A stretch of 34,931 nt of DNA from assembly GCA_013140885.1 (NCBI GenBank), contig JABFSC010000778.1:1-34931 (forward strand). The letters are read 5' to 3'. The DNA is from Deltaproteobacteria bacterium (GTDB taxonomy: Bacteria > Desulfobacterota > Binatia > Bin18). A model generated the notes under the pieces. The model searched no databases and was not told where the DNA came from. It saw only the letters and a list, made by a program, of their open reading frames with translations. This document shows, one piece after another, positions 2,272 to 28,246 of this stretch (positions within the stretch are counted from its first letter, which is position 1; each line of letters starts with the position of its first letter). The translations under genes were made by a program, and so were the position numbers.

Positions 2272-2279
2272 GAGGGGCT

Positions 2280-5200
2280 ATGGTTGAACGCATCATCGAC
2301 TTTAGTGCCCGCAACCGCTTCATTGTGCTGCTCCTCGTCTTCGGTTCCGCCGCCGCCGGTCTGTGGGCGTTGAAGAACACGCCGATGGACGCCATTCCTG
2401 ACCTCTCGGATACCCAAGTCATCATCTATACCACGTGGATGGGACGTTCACCGGATCTCGTGGAAGATCAAGTGACCTATCCCATTGTGACCACCCTCCT
2501 GTCCGCCCCAAAAGTCACGGCCGTGCGCGGGTTCTCGGACTTCGGTTTCTCCTACGTCTATGTGTTGTTTGAGGACGGCACGGACCTCTATTGGGCACGA
2601 TCCCGCGTGCTGGAGTACATGAACCAGCTCCTGGGCCGTCTGCCAGAAGGAGTCACCCCTCAGCTCGGCCCAGATGCCACGGCTGTTGGCTGGGTCTTTC
2701 AATACGCGCTTGTCGATGAAAGCGGGCAGCAAGACCTGGCGTCCCTGCGGTCCTTCCAAGACTGGTACTTGCGCTACTGGCTGCGGAGTGTCGATGGCGT
2801 CGCCGAAGTGGCCAGCGTCGGTGGCTTCGTGCGCCAGTATCAGGTGAATTTGGATCCCACCAAGGTCCTCGCCTATAAACTGTCAATCTCAGAGATTATT
2901 GAAAAAATACGGATGAACAATAACGACGTGGGGGGCCGTGTCGTGGAGTTCTCCGGCATCGAATACATGATTCGCGGGCGCGGCTATATCAAATCGACCA
3001 CGGATATCGAGCGGATCGCCTTGAGTGTGAACCAGAACGGCACGCCGATTCTGCTGCGCGATGTCGCCACGGTGCGCTTAGGGCCGGATATGCGCCGCGG
3101 TGTGGTCGAACTCAACGGCCAGGGAGAAGTCGTTGGCGGCATTGTGGTCATGCGCTTCGGCGAAGATGTCCCCAAGGTGATTGCACGCGTGAAGGCCAAG
3201 CTGACCGCGCTCGCACCGTCGCTGCCACCAGGGGTTAAAGTGGTGAGCATGTATGATCGTAGCGACCTCATTCATGAATCCATCGCGACCGCGAATGAGA
3301 ATCTGCTCGAGGAACTCCTCGTCGTGAGTGTCTTGGTCGTGGGGTTTCTCTTGCACCTCCGGTCGGCGCTGATCCCGATCATCATGCTGCCGTTGGCGAT
3401 CCTGATTTCTTTCATCCCCGCGTACTTCCTAGGGGTTGGGCTCAACATCATGTCCATTGGCGGCATTATTGTCGCTATTGGCGATATGGTCGATGCCGCG
3501 ATTATCATCGTGGACAACGCGCATAAGCGGCTAGAAGAGTGGGAACAAGGAGGTCGAGTCGGCGACCGTGCCCAGATTCTCATTGACGCGGCCAAAGAAG
3601 TCGGCCCAGCGATTTTCACCTCCGTATTAGTCATTGCCATTTCGTTTACCCCGGTCTTCGCTTTGGAGGCGCAAGAAGGTCGCTTGTTCAAACCGTTGGC
3701 GTTTACCAACAACCTGGCGATTGCCATGAGTGCCGTGCTGGCGATTACCTTGATCCCCGCGTTACTGGTGCCTCTCATGCGCGGGCGCATCATCCCGGAA
3801 CACCGTCATCCGGTGAACCGGTTCTTACAGCAGCTCTATGCGCCGGTCCTCCGGCTCGCGCTGCGCCATCGTGGGGTCGTCGTCCTGCTTGCCGTTGGGC
3901 TGACCATCAGCATCGTTCCCATCTACCAACGGATGGGCTCCGAGTTCATGCCCCCCCTGTATGAGGGGACCATCTTGTACATGCCGACGACGTTGCCAGG
4001 GATTTCCGTGACCGAGGCGGGCATGCTGCTCCAGCAAATGGATCGGAAGCTGAAAGCCTTCCCAGAGGTTGCCCACGTCTTCGGGAAAGCGGGCCGCGCC
4101 GAAACGTCCACGGACTCCGCGCCCTTCAGTATGATGGAGGTCGTCGTTGGCCTCAAATCGAAAGACCAGTGGCGTCCGGGCATGACGTACGAAGCGCTCG
4201 TTGATGACATGGACAAGACGCTTCAATTTCCGGGTGTGACGAACGCCTGGACGATGCCGATCAAGGCGCGGACCGACATGCTCACCACGGGAGTACGAAC
4301 ACCCGTGGGCATCAAGATTTTTGGCCCTGATCTCAAGCAGATTGAAGAGATTGGTCAGCATATAGAAATGACGGTACGAAATGTCACCGGCACACGCAGC
4401 GTCTACGCGGAACGTGTATCGGGAGGATATTTCCTCGACTTCACCATCAACCGCGAGGAAATTGCCCGGTACGGGTTGGCGGTGATGGACGTCGGTCAGA
4501 TCATCGAATCCGCCATTGGAGGAGAAAACATTGCCACGACCATTGAAGGCCGCGAGCGCTATCCCATCAACGTGCGCTATTTGCGGGAACTGCGGGATGA
4601 TCCAGAAAAACTCAACCGGGTCCTGGTCCCGACACCCACGGGCGCGCAGGTGCCATTAGCGCAGTTAACGACGCTGCGATTCGTGTCGGGCCCACCGATG
4701 ATTCGTGACGAGGATGGCATGCTCTCCGGCTATGTGTACGTCGATATGACGGGGCGCGATGTCGGTGGCTATGTCGAGGACCTCAAACGCGCCGTACAGG
4801 ACAAGGTCACGTTACCGCCCGGCTACACCATCACGTGGTCAGGACAGTATGAGTTCATGCAACGGGTGCAGGCCCGTTTATTGATTGTCGTTCCACTGAC
4901 CATCGCCATTATTTTTGTGCTTTTCTATCTTGAGTTTCGCTCCATCTCCGAGACCCTCATGGTGATGCTCGGTCTGCCCCTCTGCCTGGTCGGCGCGATC
5001 TGGTACCTCGCTCTCTTGGAGTACAACATGAGCATTGCCGTGTGGGTGGGCATCCTGGCATTGGCCGGGACAGCCGCGGAGACGAGCGCGGCCATGCTGG
5101 TGTATTTGGACAGCGCCTGCGCACGCAGGAAAGGCGTAGGTCAGTTGCGGTCACTTCAGGATTTGCTGGAGACCGTACACGCTGGAGCGGTCGAACGCAT

Positions 5201-5432
5201 TCGTCCCATGGTGATGGTGAGTGTGGTCGATATTTTGGGACTCGTACCGACGATGTGGGCGACGGGGACGGGAGCGGACGTGATGAAACGCCTCGCGGCG
5301 CCAACGGTTGGTGGTGTGATGTCTGGGCTTGTCCTTACCCTATTCGTCATTCCGGCTTTGTACGCGATGTGGAAATGGCGCTGGGAAATACAGCCCGCAC
5401 TGGTACGGGCAAACGAAGGAATCCAAGCATAA
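2280..5432 (+). CDS. cusA: Heavy-metal-efflux RND inner-membrane pump (CusA-like, Cu(I)/Ag(I))
   Basis: The ORF track starts at 2112, but ATG 2280 is preceded by AGGAGG (2269-2274) and yields the typical RND N-terminus MVERIIDFSARNRFIVLLL. TM4 carries AIGDMVDAAIIIVDNA, which matches the HME-RND A-x5-D-x6-(E/D) proton-relay motif in its CusA-like form. Length is about 1050 aa. Confidence 0.9.
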   Translation: MVERIIDFSARNRFIVLLLVFGSAAAGLWALKNTPMDAIPDLSDTQVIIYTTWMGRSPDLVEDQVTYPIVTTLLSAPKVTAVRGFSDFGFSYVYVLFEDGTDLYWARSRVLEYMNQLLGRLPEGVTPQLGPDATAVGWVFQYALVDESGQQDLASLRSFQDWYLRYWLRSVDGVAEVASVGGFVRQYQVNLDPTKVLAYKLSISEIIEKIRMNNNDVGGRVVEFSGIEYMIRGRGYIKSTTDIERIALSVNQNGTPILLRDVATVRLGPDMRRGVVELNGQGEVVGGIVVMRFGEDVPKVIARVKAKLTALAPSLPPGVKVVSMYDRSDLIHESIATANENLLEELLVVSVLVVGFLLHLRSALIPIIMLPLAILISFIPAYFLGVGLNIMSIGGIIVAIGDMVDAAIIIVDNAHKRLEEWEQGGRVGDRAQILIDAAKEVGPAIFTSVLVIAISFTPVFALEAQEGRLFKPLAFTNNLAIAMSAVLAITLIPALLVPLMRGRIIPEHRHPVNRFLQQLYAPVLRLALRHRGVVVLLAVGLTISIVPIYQRMGSEFMPPLYEGTILYMPTTLPGISVTEAGMLLQQMDRKLKAFPEVAHVFGKAGRAETSTDSAPFSMMEVVVGLKSKDQWRPGMTYEALVDDMDKTLQFPGVTNAWTMPIKARTDMLTTGVRTPVGIKIFGPDLKQIEEIGQHIEMTVRNVTGTRSVYAERVSGGYFLDFTINREEIARYGLAVMDVGQIIESAIGGENIATTIEGRERYPINVRYLRELRDDPEKLNRVLVPTPTGAQVPLAQLTTLRFVSGPPMIRDEDGMLSGYVYVDMTGRDVGGYVEDLKRAVQDKVTLPPGYTITWSGQYEFMQRVQARLLIVVPLTIAIIFVLFYLEFRSISETLMVMLGLPLCLVGAIWYLALLEYNMSIAVWVGILALAGTAAETSAAMLVYLDSACARRKGVGQLRSLQDLLETVHAGAVERIRPMVMVSVVDILGLVPTMWATGTGADVMKRLAAPTVGGVMSGLVLTLFVIPALYAMWKWRWEIQPALVRANEGIQA

Positions 5433-5515: not shown

Positions 5516-6403
5516 ATGAAAAGAACCTCTCTTCTCTCTCTCGTCATTCTTGCGACACCCGTGTTGGTGGCGGTGCTGTCCATCGAAGGCCGATTCGCGC
5601 ACGCCCAGAGCGGCCACACTCAGGACGCAAGCAAGGATGAACGTGACCAGATGCTGGCCGCGCGGATTCAAGAACTCCCGGTCAAGGTCGTTAGACTCAA
5701 GGCGGCTCTGGCTGAAAACCAGTGGGGGCCCGCGACCGGTGTGGCTGGCGTCACCACGATAGGGATGCCGATGGGGGCGGGCGGCCAGCCGTCTGGCATG
5801 GGGATGATGGAAGGTGGTCACATGGGGATGGGGATGCAAGGTCAGGGAGGTGGCATGTCCTCAATGACAGCCGGCAGCGGCGCCTCATCTGGTTCCGGGG
5901 TAATGGGCGGTATGGACATGATGGGAAAGGTCAGCGGCTCAGGGAGGATGCCCATGTCGTCAGCGCTACCCGGCTTTCCTGGGGCCTCGCATCTGTATCA
6001 TGTTGGCGCCACCGGTTTCTTCCTCGATCACCCTGAGCACATCACGCTCACGATGGAGCAGCAAACAGCGCTGAGTCGTATCAAGGAAAAGGCGCTCTTG
6101 GAGCAGGCAACGACGCAGCGAAAGATCGAGGGGACAGAACAGGAGTTATGGACGTTGACCGGCGCGGAGCAGCCACTTGTCGACAAAGTTGATGCGAAAG
6201 TGAGGGAAATCGAAAAGCTCCGCGCCGATCAGCGGCTCGCATTCATCCGTGCGGTTGGGGAGGCCGCCCAGGCGCTGACGGATGAGCAACGCAAGGCACT
6301 CTTAGGGCAAATCCCCCCCGCGACTCCCAGTACGCCGCAGGCTGCGACTCCCGGCATGCCGTCAGGGGCACCCAACGCCGGTACTGGGATGAGTGATATG
6401 TGA
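5516..6403 (+). CDS. Secreted Met/Gly-rich protein with a C-terminal LTxxQ (CpxP/ZraP/Metal_resist-like) helical domain
   Basis: ATG 5516 follows GGAAAGGAG and gives the signal peptide MKRTSLLSLVILATPVLVAVLSIEGRFAHAQ. A Met/Gly-rich stretch follows (MGMPMGAGGQPSGMGMMEGGHMGMGMQGQGGGMSSM). The C-terminal part has two LTxxQ motifs (LTMEQQTAL, LTDEQRKAL). It is a paralog of 10637-11314. The upstream part of the 5042 ORF overlaps cusA and was rejected. Confidence 0.8.
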   Translation: MKRTSLLSLVILATPVLVAVLSIEGRFAHAQSGHTQDASKDERDQMLAARIQELPVKVVRLKAALAENQWGPATGVAGVTTIGMPMGAGGQPSGMGMMEGGHMGMGMQGQGGGMSSMTAGSGASSGSGVMGGMDMMGKVSGSGRMPMSSALPGFPGASHLYHVGATGFFLDHPEHITLTMEQQTALSRIKEKALLEQATTQRKIEGTEQELWTLTGAEQPLVDKVDAKVREIEKLRADQRLAFIRAVGEAAQALTDEQRKALLGQIPPATPSTPQAATPGMPSGAPNAGTGMSDM

Positions 6404-6417
6404 GAAGTACGGGAGAT

Positions 6418-8328
6418 ATGCGCATGCGTAACAGGTATCATCGCCGTAGCGTGTTCTCACGCCTTCGCGTGGCCGTCGTGTGCCTGGGATTAGCGGTTGC
6501 GACCCCGGGCTATAGCCAAGTGTCGCCCAGTGAGCACGAAGCGCATCATCCCGGTCAAGGACAGACCGCGCCAGTTGCCTCACCGCCCGCGAGTCCGGGA
6601 GCGGCGGGCAATATGGGACAAGGGATGGGGGAGATGATGAAGGGGATGGGTGAGATGATGAAAGGGATGGGGATGTCCCCGCGCAAAGAGCTCTATCCCT
6701 CACTGATGGAGTTACCGGAGCTGCCGCCAGAACGGCGTGTCGAGATGGAGACGTTGGCCCATGAGCGCATGCTGACAGGGACCGCACTGCTCTCTTCGGG
6801 CCTCGACCAACTCGCGCAGGCGACGGCGCAAAAGGACTATTCGGCCATGCAGAAAGCAACCGCGCAGGTGCGGTTCGGTCTCGCTCAGTTCGAGAGTGGA
6901 TTGGCGGCTCACCGCGCGTTGGCCGACGGCAAGGGGGCCCGCGACGTGGCCCTCCAATGGTTCCAACGTACGATGAGCCTCGCGCCGGCGGCCGACGATG
7001 AGTCTCCGCGTGAGATCTTTGGCTTATCTTGGTTTCACTACATGACGATGGTTCTCCTCACGGCATTCGCGATCACGATGATTTGGATGTACTTCCACAA
7101 GATGCGGCGAGCCACGCAGCTCCTTCAAAGCTTGACGGGGGGCATCCCACTCGCGCCGACAACCGCGACTGTTGCCGCCGCGCTGGGACAAACCTCTCCG
7201 CCCGTCAGTGGGCTCGCTTCTCCCCTCGTTCCCGTGGCCGATGGGGCGTTCGTCCCTGCGCAGCCGGGTAAATGGTTAGGCAAACTGCGTGTGGGCCGGA
7301 TCTTCCAGGAGACGCCAGACGTGAAGACGTTTCGGCTCATGAACCCCCTTGGCGGCGTGCTGCCGTTCGCATACCTCCCTGGGCAGTTTCTTACCGTGAC
7401 CGTGACCCCGGACGGCAAGCTGGTGAAGCGCGGCTACACCATCGCCTCCTCGCCGACGCAGCATGACTACGTGGAGATTACCGTCAAGCACGAAGAGGGG
7501 GGAGTGGTGTCGGGCTTCCTCCACGCCCGTGTTCAGGAAGGGGATCTGTTGGAGTTTTCCGGTCCCTCAGGCTCCTTCATTTTCACCGGGCGGGAGTGTC
7601 GGTGTATCCTGCTCATCGGCGGCGGCGTGGGCATCACGCCGCTGATGAGCGTCCTTCGCTACCTGACCGACCGCGCCTGGCCGGGGGACATCTTCCTCAT
7701 GTACGGTTGTAAGAGCCCCCGCGACATCATCTTCCGCGAAGAACTGGATTACCTCCAGCGGCGCCATCCGAACCTGCGCGTGGTGATCGTCGTGTCGCAT
7801 GCCGAAGGGACGGATTGGAAGGGGCCGACAGGCTTCATTACCAAGGAACTGATCAGCCAGTCCGTGCCGGATATCGCGTCGCGCTATGTGCACATCTGTG
7901 GTCCCGTGCCCATGATGGAAGCGGCGAAGAAGATCCTGGCCGAACTCGGCGTACCAAAGGAGCGCGTCAAGACTGAGGCGTTCGGTTTGGCTATGGGGAA
8001 GCCGGAGCCGACGATGCCGCTCGCCGAACTTCCGCTTGGGAAGGAAGAGAAGGCCGCCCAGATAGCCCTCCCCGTAGTTACGTTCTCTCTGTCGAATAAG
8101 TCGGCCCCGTTTGCGCCTGACAAGGTCATCCTCGATGTGGCGGACGAGATCGGCGTCGAGATCGACAACTCCTGTCGCGTGGGTACCTGCGGGACTTGCC
8201 GGGTGAAGCTGCTGGCCGGCCAGGTGACCATGGCCGTCGAGAATGGCCTGGAGCCCGGCGACAAGGAGCAGGGCATCATCCTAGCCTGCCAGGCCAAGTC
8301 TACGGGCAACGTGACGGTGGAGGCGTGA
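6418..8328 (+). CDS. Membrane-anchored FNR-like oxidoreductase (FAD/NAD(P)H domains plus C-terminal plant-type 2Fe-2S) with an N-terminal periplasmic Met/His-rich domain
   Basis: The N-terminus looks like a signal peptide (RLRVAVVCLGLAVATPGYSQ). It is followed by HEAHHPGQGQ and GMGEMMKGMGEMMKGMGM, then a helical region and a single TM helix (WFHYMTMVLLTAFAITMIWMYF). FNR motifs are RGYTIAS (RxY[ST]), GGVVSGFL, LLIGGGVGITPLMS and ICGPVPMM. The ferredoxin motif is C-x4-C-x2-C-x29-C (CRVGTCGTCRV...LACQ). The start is uncertain: GTG 6400, ATG 6418 or ATG 6424. Confidence 0.85.
   Translation: MRMRNRYHRRSVFSRLRVAVVCLGLAVATPGYSQVSPSEHEAHHPGQGQTAPVASPPASPGAAGNMGQGMGEMMKGMGEMMKGMGMSPRKELYPSLMELPELPPERRVEMETLAHERMLTGTALLSSGLDQLAQATAQKDYSAMQKATAQVRFGLAQFESGLAAHRALADGKGARDVALQWFQRTMSLAPAADDESPREIFGLSWFHYMTMVLLTAFAITMIWMYFHKMRRATQLLQSLTGGIPLAPTTATVAAALGQTSPPVSGLASPLVPVADGAFVPAQPGKWLGKLRVGRIFQETPDVKTFRLMNPLGGVLPFAYLPGQFLTVTVTPDGKLVKRGYTIASSPTQHDYVEITVKHEEGGVVSGFLHARVQEGDLLEFSGPSGSFIFTGRECRCILLIGGGVGITPLMSVLRYLTDRAWPGDIFLMYGCKSPRDIIFREELDYLQRRHPNLRVVIVVSHAEGTDWKGPTGFITKELISQSVPDIASRYVHICGPVPMMEAAKKILAELGVPKERVKTEAFGLAMGKPEPTMPLAELPLGKEEKAAQIALPVVTFSLSNKSAPFAPDKVILDVADEIGVEIDNSCRVGTCGTCRVKLLAGQVTMAVENGLEPGDKEQGIILACQAKSTGNVTVEA
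6622..6672 (+). repeat. In-frame 21-bp tandem repeat (2.4 units) encoding GMGEMMK
   Basis: gggatgggggagatgatgaag (6622-6642), gggatgggtgagatgatgaaa (6643-6663) and gggatgggg (6664-6672), read directly from the sequence. Confidence 0.9.
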
Positions 8329-8329
8329 G

Positions 8330-9088
8330 ATGAAAGAGCACGAGCCTATGGTCGTCGGAGGGTTGGTGGCCCTGCTGGTGGTACTGTGGCTAGGCTTCCG
8401 GTTCCACGTCTCCCCCAGCTTTGCTGGCAGTTTCTGGGGTGGCGTGTTCGGGGTATCGGGCGCGCTGCTCATGCTCTTGTCCGCGGTGTACCTGGTGGTC
8501 AAGCGAGTTCCGCCCCTTAAATTATGGGTCACCGGCCGAGTCTCTATGCAGACCCTGCTGACCTGGCACATGTATACCGGCATCGTGGGCGCCCTCCTGG
8601 GCTTGCTGCACACGGGTCATAAGTTCAACAGCCCCCTCGGAATCGCCCTGACGGCGGTGTCGCTCCTCGTCGTCCTGAGCGGGTTCGTCGGGCGCCATTT
8701 GATGAAGCAGATTTCCTTGGAGATCCGCGAAAAGAAGGAAATGCTGACCAGTTTAGAGTTGGCCTACCGACAGACGGTGGGCGAGGTGGCCGCGCATCCC
8801 GATCTGACCACCATCCTGTGGCCCCTGGCGGGATTCTGGTCACGCCTGGTGGTGGGGCTCCTCGTGACGACTCCGACGGAATCGGGCTCGCTGCCCGCCC
8901 CCGTTCGTGCGCTCCGGCTGGCTGATGCCATCGCTGACCTGGAGTACGCCATTAGGACTCACGAGACCTTCAAACGATGGTTCGCCGCTTGGCTCAAGGT
9001 TCACATCCTCACCGGCTTCGTTCTGTATAGCTTGCTGGGCCTGCACATCTGGGCGGGCATTTACTTTGGGCTGAGGTGGTTCGCATGA
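8330..9088 (+). CDS. Polytopic membrane protein, putative di-heme b-type cytochrome (ferric-reductase/MsrQ-like logic)
   Basis: GGAGG (8319-8323) lies 6 nt before ATG 8330, which is 1 nt after the upstream stop. The protein has about 6 hydrophobic helices. Two helices carry His pairs exactly 14 residues apart within a shared pattern: WHMYTGIVGALLGLLH and VHILTGFVLYSLLGLH. Confidence 0.6.
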   Translation: MKEHEPMVVGGLVALLVVLWLGFRFHVSPSFAGSFWGGVFGVSGALLMLLSAVYLVVKRVPPLKLWVTGRVSMQTLLTWHMYTGIVGALLGLLHTGHKFNSPLGIALTAVSLLVVLSGFVGRHLMKQISLEIREKKEMLTSLELAYRQTVGEVAAHPDLTTILWPLAGFWSRLVVGLLVTTPTESGSLPAPVRALRLADAIADLEYAIRTHETFKRWFAAWLKVHILTGFVLYSLLGLHIWAGIYFGLRWFA

Positions 9089-9927
9089 AACTATGGCCAT
9101 TCGTAATCGCGGCGGTGGCTCTCGTCGTGGCGTTGTTTGGTGGGTTTTATTTCCTGCGAGTCCACCCTGGAGGCCTGCGTTCGGGGGTATTGGACAAGAC
9201 GGCCTGGCAACGCATGGCCGTTCCCGGCGCGTTGTCCAACGCACACGCATTTTTGGAACACAACTGCGCCGCCTGTCATACTCCGGTGACGGGTGCCGAC
9301 GACATCAAGTGCATCGGCTGCCACGCGAATGACGAAGCTCTGCTTCAGCGTCAGCCCACCGTGTTTCACGCGACGATCGGATCCTGTGCCTCCTGCCACG
9401 GCGAACACCAGGGCGTCGATACACATGTGGGGGAGATGGATCACGCAAAGTTAGCGAAAATCGCCCTTACTTCATTGACAACCACTAGCCCCCAGAGTGA
9501 GCAAAAGCGAGGGAGCACGGACCTTGTGACATGGCTCCGTCCGCACCAAGACATGGTAGCGGCCACGAGCCACCCACAGCTGACTCCGCTGGAGGCGACG
9601 TTGGACTGCCGAACTTGTCACGGTACTAAGGACCGTCACGTCGGACTTTTCGGGGGAGACTGTGCCGCGTGTCATGGGACCGCGGCGTGGACGATCGCTG
9701 CATTCCGCCACCCCTCGCCGCGCTCACTTGACTGCGCCCAGTGTCATCAGGCTCCGCCCAGCCATTACATGGAGCACTTCAACATGGTTTCGAAAAGAGT
9801 CGCTGGGCAAGACAACGATGCGAGTAGTCAGTGTTGCGGCCCAGTGCAAGTCAACCAGTGCTACCGCTGTCATCAGACGACGTCGTGGAACGACATCAAG
9901 GGGGTCGGATGGTACAAGCACCACTGA
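9085..9927 (+). CDS. Membrane-anchored heptaheme c-type cytochrome
   Basis: ATG 9085 overlaps the upstream stop (ATGA) and follows GAGGTGG. The N-terminal anchor is MKLWPFVIAAVALVVALFGGFYFL. There are seven CxxCH motifs: CAACH, CIGCH, CASCH, CRTCH, CAACH, CAQCH, CYRCH. Confidence 0.9.
   Translation: MKLWPFVIAAVALVVALFGGFYFLRVHPGGLRSGVLDKTAWQRMAVPGALSNAHAFLEHNCAACHTPVTGADDIKCIGCHANDEALLQRQPTVFHATIGSCASCHGEHQGVDTHVGEMDHAKLAKIALTSLTTTSPQSEQKRGSTDLVTWLRPHQDMVAATSHPQLTPLEATLDCRTCHGTKDRHVGLFGGDCAACHGTAAWTIAAFRHPSPRSLDCAQCHQAPPSHYMEHFNMVSKRVAGQDNDASSQCCGPVQVNQCYRCHQTTSWNDIKGVGWYKHH
9700..9927 (+). repeat. Copy 1 of a 228-bp dispersed direct repeat (3' end of the cytochrome c gene)
   Basis: Aligned by eye to 18931-19158 with 9 mismatches in 228 bp. 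Similarity ends at both borders. Confidence 0.9.
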
Positions 9928-10062
9928 CAAGGAGAAGGAAGGAACGAACGGCGGCAAGGCTTTCTCAGGACGGTGTTGGCCAGGCACGATCGCCAGCGCG
10001 GCGCCGCGCTCTACCGCCGGACCATGGCAACCCGAGCGACGAGGTCGATCCTACGTCCCTCC

Positions 10063-10083
10063 GAGGCGGGCCGCGCCCGCCTC
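10063..10083 (+). other. Perfect 9-bp GC-rich hairpin (gaggcgggc-cgc-gcccgcctc) downstream of the cytochrome gene; possible transcript end or stabiliser
   Basis: The inverted repeat is read directly from the sequence. No U-tract follows, so an intrinsic-terminator call is weak. Confidence 0.3.
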
Positions 10084-10156
10084 GCTGCTCCAGTTCCCAC
10101 GTTGTTCGGGATAATGCATTCGCATTACCCGTAGATAGAGAATGGAGGAGAACGCC

Positions 10157-10471
10157 ATGATGAAATACAGAATCGTTACACTCGCAATTGTTGCGCTCTT
10201 GTCCGTGTCTTTCCCTGCCTCATCCGTTCTGGCCGCCGAGATGGTTGGTGTCATGATGAAGGATGGCAAGATGATGATGATGGACGGCAAGGCGACGGGA
10301 CCGATGGACCACGAGATGACGATGCCCGACGGCCACAAGATCATGCCTGACGGCACGATGAAAATGAACGACGGCAAAGAGATGCGCATGCAGGAAGGCC
10401 AGATGATGACGATGGACGGGAAGATGCTGGAGGGTGGCAAGGACATGAAAATGGAAGGGATGGACAAGTAG
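10157..10471 (+). CDS. Small secreted, extremely Met-rich repeat protein (M-x-DGK type repeats), probable periplasmic Cu(I)/Ag(I) binder
   Basis: GGAGG (10144-10148) lies 8 nt before ATG 10157. The signal peptide is MMKYRIVTLAIVALLSVSFPASSVLAAE. The mature part reads MMKDGKMMMMDGK...MPDGHKIMPDGTMKMNDGKEMRMQEGQMMTMDGKMLEGGKDMKMEGMDK. Confidence 0.8.
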   Translation: MMKYRIVTLAIVALLSVSFPASSVLAAEMVGVMMKDGKMMMMDGKATGPMDHEMTMPDGHKIMPDGTMKMNDGKEMRMQEGQMMTMDGKMLEGGKDMKMEGMDK

Positions 10472-10636
10472 CTTCTCAGAGTCGTCGGATGTTGTGATGA
10501 CGCCCGGCGTCTTGGCGGCTAGCGGAGCTTGGTAAGGCTTCGCTCCGCCAGTTCGCTGGGCACCCTTGGCGGCTCTTTTGGGGGATAGCACCCGTCAACC
10601 CAATCAAACCAGCCGACGCAAAGAAGGAGAAGAGCA

Positions 10637-11489: not shown

Positions 11490-12029
11490 GTGAATCGTAT
11501 GAGAACATCAAGAGCACTATCATTAACCACAATTGTCCCTCTGCTCCTTGCCGGCGCCCTTTACGCGCAAGCACAGACCAATGCCTCCTCCGGCGGCATC
11601 ATCCGACGCGCGGGGGAACCAGACTGCGTCCAGATCACGGAGGACAACAAAGAAATGGATCGCGCCGTGCAGACGGCGCACAAGACGGTGAACGAGTTCG
11701 TCGCAGTCCTGCGTTCGCCCGAGGGTAATCAGCGCCGCTTCGCCGTCAAGAAACCGTTCGTCGAAGGGAACAAGGTCGAACACAGTTGGCTGAACGAGGT
11801 TTCCTTCGACGGCCGCCTTTTCCACGGAAAGGTTGACAATGAACCAGTGGACCTCAGGGGAGTGCACCTCGGACAAGAAGTCTCGGTACCGTCGGACGAG
11901 ATTTCCGACTGGATGTACGTTCAGGATGGGCGGCTGGTCGGTGGCTACACCATCAGGGCGATGTACCAAAACATGTCGCCCGCCGAGAAGCAGCGGTTCG
12001 AGAAGGACGCAGACTGTCAAATCCAGTGA
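11490..12029 (+). CDS. Secreted DUF2314-like (YegJ-like) protein
   Basis: GTG 11490 lies 10 nt after AAGGAG. A signal peptide ends at LYAQAQ. The core FAVKKPFVEGNKVEHSWLNEVSFDGRLFHGKVDNEP...ISDWMYVQDGRLVGGYT resembles my recollection of the DUF2314 pattern. Confidence 0.6.
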   Translation: MNRMRTSRALSLTTIVPLLLAGALYAQAQTNASSGGIIRRAGEPDCVQITEDNKEMDRAVQTAHKTVNEFVAVLRSPEGNQRRFAVKKPFVEGNKVEHSWLNEVSFDGRLFHGKVDNEPVDLRGVHLGQEVSVPSDEISDWMYVQDGRLVGGYTIRAMYQNMSPAEKQRFEKDADCQIQ

Positions 12030-12409
12030 ACCCGAAAGAAGCAAAACGTATGAACAATCATAAACTCATCACCGAACAATCCCTCGCGGCAGCGGGCCAA
12101 TCGTCCCTGACGCTCCGCCAATGGCGACGAGCGCTCCACGCAGTCCTCGTGCTGACTGCTATCGTCGTTTTGGCTGGCTGCGCTGGTTACGGTTCGCCCG
12201 GCGGCTTTTACGGCTATCCTGGTCCTTACCGTTCTGGCGGCTTCTACAGCGGCGGAGTCTATCGCGGATATTTTTATGGCAACCAGCATAGTATCGGTCG
12301 CAGTGGATTCAGGGGCGGCGGTGGAACGAGACCCGCGCACGTTGGGAAGAGGCGCTCGATGCATAGTATCGGTCGCAGTGGATTCGGGGGCGGCGGTCGG
12401 AGACATTAG
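12026..12409 (+). CDS. Gly/Tyr/Arg-rich putative lipoprotein with an internal repeat
   Basis: Lipobox-like VLAGC follows a hydrophobic stretch. The mature part is GYGSPGGFYGYPGPYRSGGFYSGGVYRGYFYG followed by two HSIGRSGF[RG]GGG units. The start is GTG 12026 (GTGA overlap with the upstream stop) or ATG 12050. Confidence 0.5.
   Translation: MNPKEAKRMNNHKLITEQSLAAAGQSSLTLRQWRRALHAVLVLTAIVVLAGCAGYGSPGGFYGYPGPYRSGGFYSGGVYRGYFYGNQHSIGRSGFRGGGGTRPAHVGKRRSMHSIGRSGFGGGGRRH
12286..12398 (+). repeat. Direct repeat with a 75-bp period (gcatagtatcggtcgcagtggattc[a/g]ggggcggcggt) inside the lipoprotein ORF
   Basis: The two copies start at 12286 and 12361 and are near-identical over about 36 bp. The repeat is in frame (25 codons apart). 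Confidence 0.85.
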
Positions 12410-14195: not shown

Positions 14196-14468
14196 ACACG
14201 CCCGCTCGAAGCATCGCGGAGCGCGGTTGCTCGAAATTGATGGAAGAACCACGGCAAAATTGATGGGAGACAGCAACAACCAAGAAAGAAACCTGAATCC
14301 ACGGCCAAGCATTGAATTTGCCGGTTTCGGACTCAGTTTATGTGGCTTAGCGGCAATCTCCATTTTCACCCATTGGGTGCTGTCTCGGTATTGCGCTAGG
14401 GACCGCTGTCATTGGGAGAAACTGCATTTTTGATTCTTTACCCGTGGATTCAGGAAAGAAACATAACC

Positions 14469-16934
14469 ATGAAAGAATCGCAATCCGTGACCATAGATCC
14501 CATCTGCGGAATGACCGTGGACGAAGCAACCGCTCTCCACGCGGAACGCGAGGGAAAGACGTTCTACTTTTGCAGCGACCACTGTCGGCTCAAGTTTCGG
14601 TCAGCGCCGGCGAGCGTGACGCATGCGGAAGTGCCTCCCGGCGGCTCTCAGTCTCCTCTCGCGCACGAGCACGGTGACCGTTCGACGGCGTGGTCCTCGA
14701 CGCAATATTTTTGCCCGATGTGCCCTGGCGTGGAATCCGACCAGCCCGGTGACTGTTCGCAATGCGGGATGGCGTTGGAGCGCAATCCCGCACGGGTCGG
14801 GCTGGTGTCAGGAAAAACGATTTACACCTGTCCGATGCACCCCGAAGTGCGGCAGGACCATCCCGGCGATTGCCCCAAGTGCGGCATGACGCTGGTGCGG
14901 AAGACCCCGACGGCGAGCCCGGATCAAGTGGAGGACGCTGAGCTGCATGACATGACGACGCGCTTCTGGATCGGTGCGGCGCTGACGTTGCCGGTGTTTT
15001 TCCTGGCGATGGCGCACGTGATCCCGGCGCTGGCCAGGCAGTCCTGGGCGGATAGTCACACCTCGCGCTGGATACAACTTGCGCTCACCACGCCCGTGGT
15101 CTGGTGGGCGGGCGGGCCGTTCTTCCGCCGGGGCTGGCGCTCGGTCGTGACGCGTCACTTGAACATGTTTACGCTGATCGCCCTCGGCGTGGGCGCGGCG
15201 TTCGTCTTTAGCGCGGTGGCCATGCTCGCGCCCGACCTGTTCCCGCATACCATGCGACACGAGGGCAAGGTGGCCATCTACTTTGAAGCCGCCGCGGTGA
15301 TCGTTGTTCTCGTGTTGCTGGGGCAGGTGCTCGAGCTCCGTGCCCGCAGCCGTACCGGCAGCGCCATCAAAGCGTTGCTCAACCTCGCCCCGCCCATGGC
15401 GCGGCGGGTCACACCGGGGGGCGATCATGAAGTCTCGCTCGACCAAGTGAAAGTCGGCGACCAGTTACGGGTTGTTCCAGGTGACAAGGTGCCTGTCGAT
15501 GGCGTGGTCGTGGAAGGCCATTCCAATGTGGAGGAATCCATGATCACCGGCGAACCGCTTCCGGTGGAAAAGAGCGTCGGCGACAAAGTGACGGGCGGCA
15601 CCGTCAATGGAACCGGCAGTTTCGTCATGCGCGCCGAGCGGGTCGGGAGCGACACGTTGCTCGGGCAGATCGTCAACATGGTTGCCGAAGCCCAGCGCAG
15701 CCGTGCACCCATTCAAGGTCTCGTGGACAAGGTCGCGAGCATCTTCGTGCCGGTGGTGCTGGCGGTGGCAGTGCTTACTTTCGTTGTCTGGCTATGGCTG
15801 GGGCCAGAGCCAGAGCTCGCGCACGCCATCGTCAACGCCGTTGCGGTCCTCATCATTGCCTGCCCGTGCGCCCTCGGCCTGGCCACGCCCATGTCCATCA
15901 TGGTCGGCGTCGGACGCGGTGCGCAGGAAGGCGTGCTCGTGAAAAACGCCGAAGCGCTCGAACGGTTGGAGAAAGTCACCACGCTCGTCGTGGACAAGAC
16001 GGGCACCCTGACGGAGGGCAAACCTAAGCTCGTGGATGTCCTGCCCACCGGCGGTTTCGAGACGAAGGAATTTCTGCGGCTCGCCGCCTCACTGGAGCAG
16101 AACAGCGAACACCCACTCGCCGCCGCGATTGTGCAGGGCGCGAAGGAGCAAGGCATCGCCATCGAGACGGTAAAAGACTTTCGTTCGGTGACGGCGGGCG
16201 GTGTTCTCGGCACCGTCGCTGGTCGCGCGGTGATGATCGGCAAGCCGGCCTTCCTGCGAGACAAAGGCATTGCCAGTCTGGAGCCGCTCGAAGCCTCGGC
16301 CGTGCAACTCCAGGAGGAAGGCAAGACCGCGATGTATGTCGCCGTGGATGGCAAGCCAGCGGGAATCCTCGCCGTCGCTGACCCGATCAAATCGACCACC
16401 CCCGAAGCCATCCGCGAACTCCACGCGCTCGGTTTGAAACTCGTCATGCTCACCGGCGACAACCGCCGCACCGCCGCCGCAGTAGCGAAGACACTTGGCC
16501 TCGATGCGGTGGAAGCGGACATCGAACCCGCCGGCAAAGTCAGCCATGTGAAGAAGCTGCGGGCGGAAGGCAACCACGTCGCGATGGCTGGCGACGGCAT
16601 CAACGACGCCCCCGCCCTGAGCGAAGCCGAAGTCGGCATTGCGATGGGCACGGGCACCGACGTGGCCATGCAGAGTGCTGGAGTCACCCTCGTGAAAGGC
16701 GACCTCCGCGGTATTGCCAAAGCGATTCGCCTCAGTCGCGCCACCATGCGGAATATCCGGCAGAATCTGTTCTTCGCCTTTGTCTACAATGCGCTGGGAA
16801 TTCCGGTGGCGGCGGGCGTGTTGTACCCGTTCTTCGATTTGCTGCTCAGCCCGATCATTGCCGGTGCCGCGATGAGCCTGAGTTCAGTGTCCGTCATCAG
16901 CAACGCCTTGCGGCTGCGAAAGGTGAGGCTTTGA
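14469..16934 (+). CDS. copA: Cu(I)/Ag(I)-translocating P1B-1-type ATPase with an N-terminal TRASH/YHS-like domain plus two CPM[CH]P...C..CGM metal-binding modules
   Basis: Catalytic motifs are [15 protein letters not shown] and the TM CPC ([12 protein letters not shown]). The P1B-1 signatures are N-x6-YN-x4-P ([14 protein letters not shown]) and MxxSS (MSLSSVS). The N-terminus has CGMTV...YFCSDHC, then [24 protein letters not shown] and [24 protein letters not shown]. The ATG 14469 start was chosen over the 14412 ORF start. Confidence 0.92.
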
Positions 16935-17494: not shown

Positions 17495-17546
17495 TGAAGC
17501 ACATCAGTGGATGGTTGGGCCGCGTACACGTGTCGGGGAGACAGGC

Positions 17547-18863
17547 ATGACGAGTCACCTGGCGAACTACCCGAATCAACCAGTCAGCAGCGAAGAGATG
17601 CTGGACGCGCTCCAGCGGGACGCCTTCGGATACTTCCTGCACGAGACTAACCCTGCAAACGGCTTGGTGGTAGACAAGACGCAACCGGACGCCCCCGCGA
17701 GTATCGCCGCCGTTGGGTTTGCACTGGCAGTATATCCGGTTGGCGTCGAGCGCTCATGGATGACGCGCGCCGAAGCAGCAGAGCGAACGTTGGCGGTGTC
17801 ACGGTTCTTCTGGACTAGCCCGCAGGGGACGGCCCCGGACGCGACGGGTTACAAAGGATTCTACTACCACTTTCTCGACATGAAGACTGGACGGCGTGCC
17901 GGGAGGTGTGAGCTGTCCACGATCGATACCGCTTTCCTGCTCGCTGGAATGCTCACCGCCGCAACCTATTTCAATCAGGATTGCGCGGACGAGCGGGAGA
18001 TCCGTACGTTGGCCGATGCGCTCTACCGCCGTACCAATTGGCAGTGGGCGCGAAACGGTGGAGCGACGATCACCCATGGGTGGAATCCTGAAAGCGGCTT
18101 TTTGAAGTATCGCTGGGAAGGCTACGACGAGGCCCTGCTCGTGTACGTGCTGGGCCTTGGTTCGCCGACGTACCCGCTGCCAAAGGAAAGCTATGCGGCG
18201 TGGACCTCCACCTACGAGTGGAAGAAGATCTATGGGCACGAGTTCCTGTATGGCAGCTCGCTCTTCATTCATCAATACTCGCATCTATGGATCGACTTCC
18301 GTGGGATCCAGGATGTCTTCATGCGCGGCAAGGGCATCGACTACTTCGAGAACAGCCGGCGCGCGACCCATGTCCAGCAGCAGTACGCGGTTCATAATCC
18401 TCACGCATTCGTGGGCTACGGCCAATATTTCTGGGGGCTGACCGCGAGCGATGGGCCCGGCCAGACGGTGCGAAGGGTCCAAGGAGTCGAGCGCCACTTC
18501 TTCGATTATGTGGCGCGCGGTGTGCCGTACGGCCCGGACGACGGGACCGTCGCGCCGTGGGCAGTGGTCGCTTCGCTACCCTTTGCCCCGGAGATCGTGC
18601 TGCCGACGGTTCGGCATTTCAAAGAGGTCTATCCGGAGATCACGGGCAAGTATTGCTTCAAGTGCAGCTTCAATTTGACCTTTCCGCATGAGTCGCAGGG
18701 CAAGCCTGGCTGGACCTCGCAGTACCACTACGGGATCAACTTGGGGCCGGTCGTATTGATGTGCGAGAACCACCGCTCGGGCTTGCTCTGGCGACTCACA
18801 CGGCGTTGCCCCTACCTCGTCACGGGGTTACGGCGAGCGGGATTTGCGAACGGCTGGTTATGA
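17547..18863 (+). CDS. Glucoamylase-like / GH144-type (beta-1,2-glucanase-like, PF10091-type) protein
   Basis: GGGGAG lies 6 nt before ATG 17547. Motifs recalled for this family are GFYYHFLDMKTG, STIDTAFLLAGML, WEGYDEALLVYVLGLGSP and GLTASDGPG. No signal peptide is evident. Confidence 0.6.
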   Translation: MTSHLANYPNQPVSSEEMLDALQRDAFGYFLHETNPANGLVVDKTQPDAPASIAAVGFALAVYPVGVERSWMTRAEAAERTLAVSRFFWTSPQGTAPDATGYKGFYYHFLDMKTGRRAGRCELSTIDTAFLLAGMLTAATYFNQDCADEREIRTLADALYRRTNWQWARNGGATITHGWNPESGFLKYRWEGYDEALLVYVLGLGSPTYPLPKESYAAWTSTYEWKKIYGHEFLYGSSLFIHQYSHLWIDFRGIQDVFMRGKGIDYFENSRRATHVQQQYAVHNPHAFVGYGQYFWGLTASDGPGQTVRRVQGVERHFFDYVARGVPYGPDDGTVAPWAVVASLPFAPEIVLPTVRHFKEVYPEITGKYCFKCSFNLTFPHESQGKPGWTSQYHYGINLGPVVLMCENHRSGLLWRLTRRCPYLVTGLRRAGFANGWL

Positions 18864-18876
18864 GGAGAGCCCACAC

Positions 18877-19158
18877 ATGTCTGATCTGCTGATGCGCGGT
18901 AGTGGTCTTCAACTCTTGGCGGTGGCGGCAGCATTCCGCCACCCCTCGCCGCGCTCGCTCGACTGCGCCCAGTGTCATCAGGCTCCGCCCAGCCATTACA
19001 TGGAGCACTTCAACATGGTTTCGAAAAGAGTCGCTGGGCAAGACAACGATGCGAATAGTCAGTGTTGTGGCCCAGTGCAAGTCAACCAGTGCTACCGCTG
19101 TCATCAGACGACATCGTGGAACGATATCAAGGGGGTCGGATGGTACAAGCACCATTAG
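18877..19158 (+). CDS. Di-heme c-type cytochrome fragment or paralog (duplicate of the C-terminal 75 codons of 9085-9927 with a novel N-terminus)
   Basis: GAGGAG (18862-18867) precedes ATG 18877. It retains CAQCH and CYRCH. The new N-terminus MSDLLMRGSGLQLLAVAAA is only weakly signal-like. It may be a remnant rather than a functional gene. Confidence 0.5.
   Translation: MSDLLMRGSGLQLLAVAAAFRHPSPRSLDCAQCHQAPPSHYMEHFNMVSKRVAGQDNDANSQCCGPVQVNQCYRCHQTTSWNDIKGVGWYKHH
18931..19158 (+). repeat. Copy 2 of the 228-bp dispersed direct repeat
   Basis: About 96% identical to 9700-9927. The differences are mostly at synonymous codon positions. Confidence 0.9.
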
Positions 19159-19284
19159 GACAATGTGGTTCTGCCGCACGGGCGCCACCGTTTCTGCGAG
19201 GTTGCGCCCGGCGTGATCGGGCGTCACCGCATCACACGGAGAGAGAACGATAACACTCAAGACCAACGACAAGGAGAATACTCT

Positions 19285-19626
19285 ATGAAACGTTTTCCAC
19301 GGATCATGTTGCTTGTGACAACTCTCATCGCCTTCGGCTCGGTGTTCGCGTTCGCCGAGGATGACATGATGAAACAGGGGATGGGCGGCATGGCGCAGCA
19401 CGAAATGATGGGCAAGGACTCGATGGCAATGGACAAGAAGATGCAGGAGCTTCAGCAGCACGAGAAGATGATGGAGGGTATCGAAGACCCAAAACAGATG
19501 ATGACAGAGATGAAAAAGCACATGCAAATGATGGGCGATATGATGGGAGCCAATTGTTGTAAACTCGGCGGTATGAGTGGCAAGCCCGCGGCAACGAGTG
19601 GCTCTGGGAGCATGTCGGAACACTAA
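19285..19626 (+). CDS. Secreted Met-rich helical protein (putative periplasmic Cu-binding), paralog of 20801-21280
   Basis: AAGGAG lies 8 nt before ATG 19285. The signal peptide is MKRFPRIMLLVTTLIAFGSVFAFAED. The mature part reads DMMKQGMGGMAQHEMMGKDSMAMDKKMQELQQHEKMMEGIEDPKQMMTEMKKHMQMMGDMMGANCC. Confidence 0.75.
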   Translation: MKRFPRIMLLVTTLIAFGSVFAFAEDDMMKQGMGGMAQHEMMGKDSMAMDKKMQELQQHEKMMEGIEDPKQMMTEMKKHMQMMGDMMGANCCKLGGMSGKPAATSGSGSMSEH

Positions 19627-19860
19627 TAGCCCCGGTCCAAAATCAGATTGCTTTGTTATCTCGGGGCAACCCTGGCGCTCGCCAGCGCCGTGAGGGGACA
19701 ACCGAAGTGACAGGGCGGGTGGTTCGGATGCGAGGCCCGCCCAATATCTCTCACGGAGCGTGCAGTATGGTCTCCGTCGTTTGGGGTGCAAAGGAGAGGC
19801 AAGCCGCTCCAATGTCAAGAACGCGACCACAGGACAACTGTCGTGAGAAGGGAGAGAATA

Positions 19861-20103
19861 ATGGAACACACCACACACACACAACCTACTCGGGCGGAAG
19901 GCAGGTTCCAGCACGGTAGTCGTTTCATCCTCTTTGCTTTTCTTGCCATCGCCGGCTTCTATCTCCTTACCGAGCATACGGCCCATGTTTTCGGCATCCT
20001 GCCGTACCTCCTGGTGTTCTTATGCCCGATCCTGCATTTCCTTCATGGTGGACACGGTGGGCACAACTCCCAACATCGTCAAGAGAAAGGGGACGAACGA
20101 TGA
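19861..20103 (+). CDS. DUF2933-like small membrane protein with a His-rich tail
   Basis: GGGAGAG lies upstream of ATG 19861. The sequence LLTEHTAHVFGILPYLLVFLCPILHFLHGGHGGH resembles the DUF2933 pattern. Its stop overlaps the next start (ATGA). Confidence 0.7.
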   Translation: MEHTTHTQPTRAEGRFQHGSRFILFAFLAIAGFYLLTEHTAHVFGILPYLLVFLCPILHFLHGGHGGHNSQHRQEKGDER

Positions 20104-25739: not shown

Positions 25740-26105
25740 ATGAGTGACCACGAAGTAAATAGGCACATCGAGATGTCCAACGTGCCTCATGGTCCTCCTG
25801 ACAGAGGCGGGCAGGCAGTGAACGATCCGGTCTGCGGCATGGAAGTGAATCCAGTGACCACGGTTCACACGCATGAGTACGGTGGGCAGAGATATTTTTT
25901 CTGTAGCAGTCAATGCTTGGCGAAATTTCGCGTGGAACCCAGCAAATATCTGGTCTCTGCTGTCGAGCCCTCTACGGTTGTTACCGCACCCGACAACACA
26001 GGGCAACCAGCAGTGGCAACCGACGCTAGGTACTCATGCATCCTGAAATTCGTCACAAAGAGCCAGGAGCCTGTCCGCGGTGTGGCATGGCGCTCGAACC
26101 TGTGA
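25740..26105 (+). CDS. TRASH/YHS-domain ORF, apparently the detached N-terminus of the downstream Cu ATPase
   Basis: GGGAGGAG lies 8 nt before ATG 25740. The ORF contains CGMEV...YFFCSSQC, as in copy 1. Homology ends at ...ARYSC, after which the frame runs out of register to a stop at 26105. Confidence 0.6.
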
Positions 26106-28246
26106 CACCGAGTACTTTTCCCGCCAAGACAGAATACGTATGCCCGATGCATCCAGACATCGTGCGCATGGAGCCAGAAAACTGTTCCATCTGTGGAATG
26201 GCGCTCGAACCCCGCACAGTGACCGGCGAAGAGGAAGTCAATCCAGAACTGTCAGATATGACCCGCCGCTTCTGGGTCAGCTTCGGACTGACACTGCCCG
26301 TGCTCCTTTTGGCGATGTCAGAGATGGTGCCGGGCCGTCCGGTGCAGCATGTGCTGTCCGCGCGCGTGCTAGTGTGGATTCAGCTTGCCTTTGCTACTCC
26401 GGTCGTACTCTGGGGCGGGTGGCCATTTTTCCAGCGAGGATGGCTGTCCCTCGTCAACCGCAGTCTCAATATGTTTACCCTGATCGCGATCGGCACGGGC
26501 ACTGCCTATGTCTACAGCGTGATCGTGACTCTCTTCCCAGCGCTCTTTCCCGATTCCTTTCGCGTGCATAGCGGAGAGGTCGCGGTGTATTTCGAGGCGG
26601 CAGCGGTGATCACGGCACTTGTCCTTTTGGGACAAGTGCTCGAACTGCGGGCACGCAGCCAAACCAGTAGTGCTATCAAAGCCCTCCTCAGCCTTGCTCC
26701 CAAAACCGCCCGTATGCTTCGGGATGACCGGACGGAGGAAGATGTTCCTCTTGATCGTGTTCAGCCAGGGAACCGACTGCGGGTCCGCCCCGGAGAGAAG
26801 GTGCCGGTGGATGGTGTGGTCCTTGAAGGCACGAGTGCCGTCGATGAATCGATGGTGACAGGAGAACCGATCCCCGTGGAGAAGACGCCCGGCGTTCGTG
26901 TGACTGGTGGCACGGTCAACGGTACGGGCAGTTTGGTCATGCGCGCGGAGCGGGTCGGCAGTGACACGCTGCTCGCGCAGATCGTACACATGGTGGGCGA
27001 AGCCCAGCGCAGCCGCGCGCCCATTCAACGATTAGCGGATGTCGTTGCCGCGTACTTTGTTCCGATAGTCGTCATTGTCGCAATCGTGACCTTCGGGGCA
27101 TGGGCGTTCTACGGTCCAGAGCCGCGCATGGCATACGCCTTGGTGAATGCGGTGGCTGTGCTTATCATCGCCTGTCCGTGCGCGGTAGGATTGGCGACGC
27201 CAATGTCGATCATGGTGGGAACGGGGCGCGGCGCCATGGCTGGGGTGTTGATCAAGAATGCGGAGGCGCTCGAAGCGTTGGAGAAAGTCGACACCCTCGT
27301 GGTGGACAAAACCGGCACACTCACCGAAGGCAAACCTCGCTTGACCTCGGTCGTTCCCTTGCCAGGACAAGGCGAGGGTGAACTCCTGCGATTAGCAGCG
27401 AGCCTTGAACGGGGAAGTGAACATCCCCTGGCCGCCGCCATTGTCGCCGAAGCACAAGCGAGAGGTGTGCAGCTCGCTGACGTTAGAGACTTTCAGTCTC
27501 GTACGGGCAAAGGCGTGGTCGGTACGGTAAGCGGTCGCGGTGTAGCCCTTGGGAATCGCAAGCTCTTTGAAGAACTCGCGGTTGACCTGCAGGGTCTTCC
27601 TGAGCAGGCTGAAGTCCTGCGCCGGGATGGACACACAGTGATGTTTGTCGCCCTGAACGGACACGCAGCCGGACTGCTTGGCGTGGCTGATCCGATTAAG
27701 GTATCCACCGCTGAGGCTCTCCAACAGTTACGCGAGGAAGGCGTTCATGTCGTGATGGTCACCGGTGACAGCCGCACGACCGCCGAGGCCGTGGCTCGTA
27801 CATTAGGGATTGACGCCGTCGAGGCCGAAATCCTGCCTCAACAGAAGGGCGAGATCGTGAAGCGACTGCAAGCGGAGGGGCACGTGGTGGCGATGGCCGG
27901 GGATGGCGTCAATGATGCTCCCGCCCTGGCACAGGCGCAGGTGGGAATCGCCATGGGCACGGGCACGGACGTCGCGATGGAAAGTGCCGGCGTGACGCTC
28001 GTGAAGGGGGACTTACGCGGAATCGTGCGTGCTCGCAGGCTCAGCCGAGGCACCATGCGCAATATCCGACAGAATCTGTTCTTTGCCTTTATCTATAATG
28101 CGCTCGGTGTCCCGATTGCAGCGGGCGTGCTCTATCCGATGTTCGGGCTCCTGCTAAGTCCGATGATCGCGAGCGCGGCTATGACGTTTAGCTCTGTGTC
28201 GGTGATCGCCAACGCACTGCGATTGCGTACACTGACACTCTCATAG
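26036..28246 (+). CDS. copA: Cu(I)/Ag(I) P1B-1-type ATPase, copy 2 (N-terminally severed; possibly a pseudogene or a split gene)
   Basis: Motifs are [41 protein letters not shown] and MTFSSVS. The listed ATG is the Met of a CPMHP motif whose Cys-Pro are missing. A second, intact module is present ([24 protein letters not shown]). Confidence 0.85.

Follow-up and report, generated by a model that had tools for sequence, protein, structure and literature searches.

The near-identity of two cytochrome c tracts lying 9 kb apart in a metagenomic contig raises the question of whether the second tract, which sits in a 93-codon open reading frame (ORF), is a newly duplicated and selected mini-cytochrome gene or the remains of an older one. 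The window analysed here, 34,931 nucleotides in length, is the whole of contig C324 of a metagenome-assembled genome (MAG) of 5.78 Mb (795 contigs, 84% complete, 5% contamination), so that both tracts sit on a single 34.9-kb contig of a metagenome assembly. The initial annotation, made from the sequence alone, took the shorter copy for a recent segmental duplication of the 3' end of the cytochrome gene, under selection and equipped with a newly acquired 5' end, and offered as an alternative that it might be the stump of a second full operon.

As a whole, the window forms a composite copper or metal island (Table 1). The intact cytochrome gene, referred to as A, closes an operon spanning 6400-9927 in the order FNR-2Fe2S reductase, membrane protein and cytochrome c, and this order is also found in loci L020 and L022 and on a Methylocystis rosea plasmid (L103). 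In the database version of cytochrome A, the start is the ATG at 9085 and the protein has 280 aa. Its 2396 homologs are about 272 aa in length, and the family, labelled 'cytochrome c3 family protein', is uncharacterised. A search with the sequence against the PDB returned NrfB alone (E = 0.14), Pfam matches to the module remained below threshold, and a literature search found no paper on this particular cytochrome in copper islands.

Table 1. Features of the copper or metal island that bear on the origin of copy B (window coordinates; tracts A and B are the two near-identical segments)
Feature	Coordinates	Strand	Remarks
CusCBA-like genes	47-5432		Island component
LTxxQ/Metal_resist proteins	In window		Island component
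FNR-2Fe2S reductase	6400-8328		First gene of the copy-A operon
Membrane protein	8330-9088		Between reductase and cytochrome c in the copy-A operon
Copy A host gene, membrane-anchored heptaheme cytochrome c, intact	9076..9927	+	Seven CXXCH motifs; 283 aa from GTG
Tract A	9697..9927	+	Last 76 codons and stop, hemes 6 and 7; probable conversion donor
Leader and DUF6799 Met-rich gene after copy A	10025..10471	+	Gene 10142-10471; Pfam DUF6799; separately shuffled cassette
Glucoamylase-family gene (PF10091)	17511..18863	+	Pfam E = 1.8e-86; its segment would have truncated the second cytochrome gene from the 5' side
Tail of the glucoamylase segment	18864..18927	+	Contains the start (ATG at 18877) and 17 opening codons MSDLLMRGSGLQLLAVA of the chimeric ORF
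Chimeric 93-codon ORF (copy B)	18877..19158	+	17 tail codons and 76 cytochrome codons
Junction-specific peptide of the 93-aa product			GSGLQLLAVAAAFR
Tract B	18928..19158	+	Probable relic, last 76 codons and stop of a second cytochrome gene; apparently overwritten from A (AU test p = 1e-4 against stump monophyly)
Native spacer of the beheaded L020-type operon	19159..19284	+	Aligns with the post-cytochrome spacer of L020
QHEKMMEGI-type secreted Met-rich gene	19285..19626	+	Normal downstream partner of the beheaded operon

Tracts A and B are 96-97% identical, and similarity ends abruptly at either border, as had been claimed. The pairing was confirmed by a repeat search, which matched 9697-9923 with 18928-19154 at 97%, and by BLAST against the whole MAG, in which the sequence occurs at these two sites only (E = 1.8e-105). 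A codon comparison found seven synonymous codons (9697, 9724, 9727, 9835, 9880, 9892 and 9922), a sole nonsynonymous one (AGT to AAT, Ser to Asn, at 9823/19054), and different stop codons, TGA in A and TAG in B. The earlier count of nine mismatches in 9700-9927 (six synonymous, one Ser to Asn, and the change of TGA to TAG) is exact; the synonymous GCT/GCA difference at 9697-9699 lies outside that interval and is additional to it. Mismatches are scattered across the 228 bp, leaving no uninterrupted identity longer than 94 bp. Copy B retains 76 of the roughly 272 residues of the family and two of its seven hemes, and its translation keeps both heme motifs that had been reported, CAQCH and CYRCH.

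Other repeats occur in the window. Two P-type ATPase paralogs (14412-16934 and 26036-28246) share long blocks at 73-79% nucleotide identity (repeat families D2-D5), along with repeated HMBD metal-binding motifs (D6). This identity is much lower than the 97% of the cytochrome tract, and the ATPases have therefore not undergone recent conversion. A direct repeat of 37 nt (12286-12322 and 12361-12397, 97% identical and 75 nt apart) lies inside an unannotated ORF at 12026-12409.

The junction that gives copy B its form is shared with relatives of the island. It was found in seven other assemblies (G004, L015-L019 and L108), L108 having been added by a pattern scan, in which L110 is the G004 contig itself. 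The shared order is the glucoamylase stop, 12-13 nt, an ATG opening MSDLLMRG, the cytochrome tail, a spacer of about 127 nt and a Met-rich gene of the QHEKMMEGI type. In G004, a relative from another genus, a 2.5-kb contig carries the glucoamylase end, an MSDLLMRG ORF with a di-heme tail, and a Met-rich MKRF gene. That contig (C296, CAZCWX010000296.1) comes from a TPA MAG whose title is 'uncultured Enterobacteriaceae bacterium', and the genome is listed in the same family as the planctomycete-like source MAG; either the title or the binning of the short contig is doubtful. An antisense ORF of 388 aa at 18820-19986 has no Pfam match and is not conserved in G004. Three distinct 93-aa counterparts (P0003-P0005) are present in the protein database and are 81-86% identical, N-terminus included; among 5.8 billion proteins, only four distinct sequences of this kind occur, and a single narrow island lineage accounts for all of them.

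Because the alignment across the junction contains zero indels in every stump locus compared, a single ancestral truncation is its parsimonious origin, and because the junction of B recurs in seven independent assemblies, the junctions themselves are no assembly artefact. At its 3' end, the glucoamylase gene of the window shares 94% identity with those of the other stump loci (dS 0.15-0.22). In named genomes, the best 80 loci include none with a stump 3' of the glucoamylase gene. In three loci with glucoamylase homologs of 82-88% identity (L026, L029 and L078), the glucoamylase gene is preceded at a distance of 1-3 kb by a full-length cytochrome of the family, making glucoamylase and cytochrome recurrent island neighbours. 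Glucoamylase-family proteins 80-88% identical to that of the window (L023-L102) come from MAGs labelled Polyangiaceae, Pirellula, Tepidisphaerales, Opitutus and Kiritimatiellia, a distribution which suggests that this glycoside-hydrolase-like gene has been widely transferred horizontally within metal islands. The PEP synthase of the window has its nearest relatives in Gemmataceae and Gemmatales planctomycetes (80-74% amino acid identity).

The start of the 93-codon ORF is older than the junction. The GAGGAG described by the initial annotation lies 9 nt 5' of the ATG at 18877 and overlaps the TGA stop of the glucoamylase gene (18861-18863). The exact string ATGTCTGATCTGCTGATRCGCGG, with TGAGGAG before it, also follows the glucoamylase stop in five contigs that lack a stump (L104, L105, L106, L107 and L109), where 8-16 codons are shared before unrelated DNA without a cytochrome begins. 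An omega of 0.88 between L104 and L105, calculated for the ORF from the shared start, indicates that this ORF is non-coding there. In the stump ORFs, the 17 N-terminal codons have an omega of 1 or more, and the first 51 nt a dS of 0-0.07. Because the same Shine-Dalgarno (SD) sequence, ATG and first codons are present in stump-free contigs, the start belongs to the tail of the incoming segment and is incidental, the 93-codon frame being a product of the junction. What had been read as a new 5' end acquired by the copy is, thus, the normal tail of the glucoamylase segment.

Two other sources for the N-terminus were considered and rejected. An internal deletion of the cytochrome gene, prompted by a MAFFT alignment that sets MSDLL opposite STDLV in the full-length cytochrome, found no backing when the 64-nt tail was compared with five cytochrome genes, which it matched no better than shuffled controls; a conserved gene following glucoamylase does not account for the start, as the downstream regions differ in all 18 close loci. 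The stretch separating the glucoamylase gene from the ORF lacks a terminator and a promoter consensus, and the tail contains no stable RNA structure, its fold being weaker than that of shuffled sequence (z = +2.0). Since a terminator is absent upstream of the ORF, co-transcription and translation are possible. Since the Ccm and Ccs maturation systems attach heme in the periplasm, c-type cytochromes have to be delivered there. The N-terminus of the window ORF had been called weakly hydrophobic, and rightly so: its best 10-mer, LQLLAVAAAF, has a KD value of 2.21, against 2.7-3.3 for the gene A anchor and for the signal peptides of both Met-rich proteins. The orthologs reach 1.2-1.7, and in these relatives charged residues fall within the putative h-region (RGRVLRLLAVAAE).

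The DNA downstream of copy B is native to a cytochrome operon other than that of A. The spacer behind B is 72% identical overall to that of L020, with long identical blocks, and aligns with the spacers of other stump loci too, while no alignment was obtained with the DNA behind copy A. The Met-rich protein encoded next to it is identical at 71 of 107 residues (66%) to the product of the L020 gene behind a full-length cytochrome, and at 50 of 84 residues to that of the gene behind the full-length cytochrome on the M. rosea plasmid. Because both the spacer and the Met-rich gene of B match those that follow full-length cytochromes, B together with them forms the end of a second operon that has been beheaded; the flanks thereby agree with the alternative that had been raised initially, a full operon lost to rearrangement.

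That each copy is followed by a gene for a Met-rich protein had also been pointed out. The adjacency is real and recurrent, at a distance of 229 nt (or 214 nt) behind A and 126 nt behind B, but the genes belong to two different and unrelated protein families, DUF6799 behind A and the QHEKMMEGI type behind B. The accompanying hint of a recombining cytochrome plus Met-rich cassette holds in that the arrangement recurs, the unit seen to be mobile being a leader plus Met-rich gene. The leader of about 130 nt and the DUF6799 gene behind A (10025-10480) are approximately 80% identical to DNA behind the glucoamylase tail in L104 and L105, where the match begins 177 nt past the MSDLLMRG ATG. From this match, it was concluded that the leader plus Met-rich gene moves between copper-island contexts.

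The history of the tract itself departs from that of the junction in which it lies. Tract B is 96% identical to A and 80-85% identical to six other stumps, and its dS is 0.7-2.4 against the other stump loci and 0.18 against the resident gene A; tract A, for comparison, is 75-88% identical to full-length orthologs. In a maximum-likelihood tree of the tract, B is placed with A and with the full-length gene of L021, L015, L016 and L108 form one group of the remaining stumps, and G004 and L019 another. A single stump clade was rejected by the AU test (p = 1.1e-4, delta lnL 40). Because B is closest to A and not to the other stumps, the tract has been converted. The downstream flank is also diverged among the stump loci (spacer 72-74% identical, Met-rich gene dS 0.5-1.4), so that the left flank and the identity of A and B carry most of the contrast between flank and tract; it is this identity together with the tree, not the contrast of flanks alone, that argues for conversion. 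The tract is limited by the truncation point at 18928 on the left and by the stop on the right, past which A-type and L020-type operons differ, and its ends are abrupt because it fills all the homology common to both loci. The near-identity does, as first supposed, reflect sequence recently copied between the tracts, but the copying was a conversion between pre-existing paralogs and not a new duplication.

The proposal that selection acts on copy B arose from the pattern of substitutions. The 7:1 synonymous bias departs from what is expected of a B that was converted once by the current A allele and has evolved neutrally from then on (p = 0.002 with kappa 1 to 0.02 with kappa 20). Polarised with L021, the B lineage has four synonymous and no nonsynonymous changes as well as a stop-preserving TAA to TAG. 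Polarisation of the A/B differences with outgroups carries little information overall, because all outgroups except L021 are near synonymous saturation. Copy B itself has an intact ORF, intact motifs and an intact stop, and shows no disabling or neutral pattern. Furthermore, a dS of 0.18 between A and B points to a divergence that is not especially recent; a neutral relic should have accumulated many nonsynonymous changes over such a period, which counts against reading B as one.

The sister stumps, in contrast, are near-neutral. Synonymous and nonsynonymous changes number 0:4 between L016 and L108, 6:9 between L015 and L016, and 1:2 between L019 and G004; pooled, the close pairs have 7 synonymous and 15 nonsynonymous changes and an omega of 0.6-1.0, not different from neutral. 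L108 has lost a heme cysteine (CAQCH to RAQCH, C30R) and is changed at family-invariant positions (I84S and H93N), sister stumps are also altered at the family-invariant F45 and G86, and G004 has lost its stop codon (TAA to TAC). Selection on the copy is therefore not a secure conclusion: the bias is nominally significant, but close relatives drift and lose a heme cysteine or the stop, and a different functional donor allele predicts the 7:1 bias equally well. The two patterns are most simply reconciled if the synonymous differences that separate A from B represent allelic variation of the functional donor, which could stem from another A allele, from several short conversion tracts or from the mixing of strains in the MAG. 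The A/B pattern does not call for selection on B, and real selection in the window genome is possible.

The direction of conversion was most likely from A to B, judging from the distances of the two parts of gene A. The synonymous distances (pS) of the A tract and of the N-terminal part of A to three orthologs are 0.37/0.50, 0.79/0.68 and 0.74/0.71, respectively, and L021 is the closest outside relative of both parts; it is because the tract matches the rest of A in this way, and has the same nearest relative, that A is taken as the donor. In addition, the flanks of B are closest to loci whose tracts are not closest to B. A reversed or two-way exchange, with the relic lineage donating to the 3' end of A as a silent reservoir, runs counter to all of these observations and is quite unlikely, although tracts A and B are equally distant from the other stumps, so that identity alone gives no direction, and at several sites (9729 and the TGA stop) the A state is unique and the B state is found in other sequences. 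Assembly or strain mixing, in which the B tract or the A/B differences would be co-assembled strain variants, might be entertained for a MAG so fragmented and 5% contaminated, in particular because allelic variants of a functional gene look synonymous-only. This is very unlikely given that both junction types have been assembled independently many times elsewhere, that the spread of the differences, with no longer identity than the 94-bp run, leaves resolvable paths on the one contig, and that a stump at 80-85% shares too few k-mers with A for confusion. As for the recent segmental duplication, a de novo copy of 228 bp of A placed behind the glucoamylase gene and then given a new start would produce both the high identity and the abrupt ends. 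It is scarcely credible in view of the identical junction, start and downstream partner in seven assemblies whose upstream flank is 94% identical and whose tracts are diverged, of the L020-type native spacer, rather than that of A, to the right of B, and of a start that predates the junction.

Alternatively, the 93-codon ORF may be a real gene, co-transcribed with glucoamylase and specifying an exported, small di-heme c-type cytochrome under purifying selection together with a Met-rich copper-binding partner. Its intact frame, CXXCH pair and stop, the GAGGAG 9 nt from the ATG with no terminator in between, the bias relative to A, the lack of nonsynonymous change in the B lineage, an N-terminus that is the most hydrophobic of the set and a length of 93 aa kept in four distinct sequences all speak for such a gene. 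Nevertheless, it is unlikely: the start region is a generic segment tail that is non-coding elsewhere, the N-terminal codons have an omega of 1 or more and in the relatives encode charged residues within the putative h-region, the sister stumps decay, the four sequences are confined to their one narrow lineage, and a functional donor can supply the low dN/dS of the tract. It is distinctly unlikely, too, that the accidental fusion has been co-opted, its exported di-heme product, translated from the glucoamylase transcript, serving as a free electron shuttle between the heptaheme cytochrome and the Met-rich copper-binding protein, with the module kept matched by conversion. If this were true, a gene would have been born from a beheaded relic and intergenic DNA, and its product would be among the smallest multiheme cytochromes.

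The explanation regarded as probable is that copy B is a relic ORF, the tail of a beheaded operon that has been kept cytochrome-like by conversion from the intact gene A. The operon in question would have been a second electron-transfer operon of the copper-island type, comprising an FNR-2Fe2S reductase, a membrane protein, a heptaheme cytochrome c and a Met-rich protein of the QHEKMMEGI type. A rearrangement would then have put the glucoamylase segment into that cytochrome gene near codon 206, removing everything upstream; what remained would be the final 76 codons with their stop, followed by the native spacer and the Met-rich gene. By chance, the incoming tail would have brought an SD, an ATG and about 17 codons in frame, creating the chimeric ORF. 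This truncation would be older than the split of the window island from at least seven relatives. Later, in the lineage of the window, non-reciprocal homologous recombination would have copied the 3' end of A over the relic. The intact look and low dN/dS of the ORF would then come from its functional donor, and the ORF is most likely no functional cytochrome in the window genome. On this best reading, the stump is an ordinary by-product of mosaic resistance islands and not a new mini-cytochrome gene.

Compared with the heptaheme cytochrome of copper islands, the 76 cytochrome residues of B represent the most conserved C-terminal block, with hemes 6 and 7 and the WNDIKGVGWYKHH end. B differs in having no membrane anchor and no operon partners, in retaining only two of the seven hemes, and in its unrelated N-terminus. 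The nearest full-length homolog of A, at 6131-6937 of L021 (P0100), has RYRCH as its last heme motif and an odd N-terminus, and no reductase or membrane-protein genes lie upstream of it; from these features, the L021 cytochrome may be a decaying copy.

Concerted evolution by conversion between bacterial paralogs is exemplified by tuf and the rRNA operons. The process is well known in prokaryotes (PMC6053082, Commun Biol 2018), and the present case resembles it in that paralogs of the same genome are closer than orthologs, the tract is bounded by homology, and the tree of the tract conflicts with the flanks. It differs in that one partner is a beheaded relic of 76 codons with foreign 5' sequence instead of a second functional copy, and in that a single event is documented, in a mobile copper-resistance island of a MAG. 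Sequence exchange between a functional gene and a truncated pseudogene occurs at the human CYP21A2/CYP21A1P locus and between Neisseria pilE and the 5'-truncated silent pilS cassettes. There, as here, a truncated or promoterless copy has a block of homology in common with an expressed gene, with which it recombines non-reciprocally. However, the silent copy is the donor in those systems, whereas the relic is most likely the recipient in this one, and the many copies and programmed variation of pilS have no counterpart in a single relic in which diversification is not evident. A silent-cassette variation system was accordingly rejected for the window, which has two copies only, an inferred direction from A to B, and an exchanged tract that is the most conserved part of the family. 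Conversion itself is, thus, known, and a beheaded relic as its recipient is the sole unusual aspect of the locus.

Stumps of the heptaheme cytochrome have also arisen independently of the one described here, at different junctions within such islands. P0043 (L191-L193, 4001-4372) is a 3' stump with another N-terminus and a broken heme motif (CAQCR), is present in 20 contigs from several samples, and overlaps the stop of a DUF2933-ICMT gene pair. P0063 is another independent 3' stump, again with a different N-terminus, and L194 contains a fragmented operon. Truncation near the F-R/Q-H-P-S block recurs among independent stumps.

The locus provides a dated, well-delimited case of conversion in which the partners, a functional gene for a multiheme cytochrome and a relic of 228 bp, lie 9 kb apart. 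It carries the caution that low dN/dS between copies in the same genome is no proof that both function when a selected donor can overwrite one of them. For annotation, 93-aa 'hypothetical proteins' of this kind in metagenome catalogues are probable relic ORFs. Metal-resistance islands are mosaics in which stumps and cassettes of a leader plus a Met-rich gene are reshuffled, and in this uncharacterised copper-island cytochrome it is the C-terminal di-heme block that is best conserved and survives most often.
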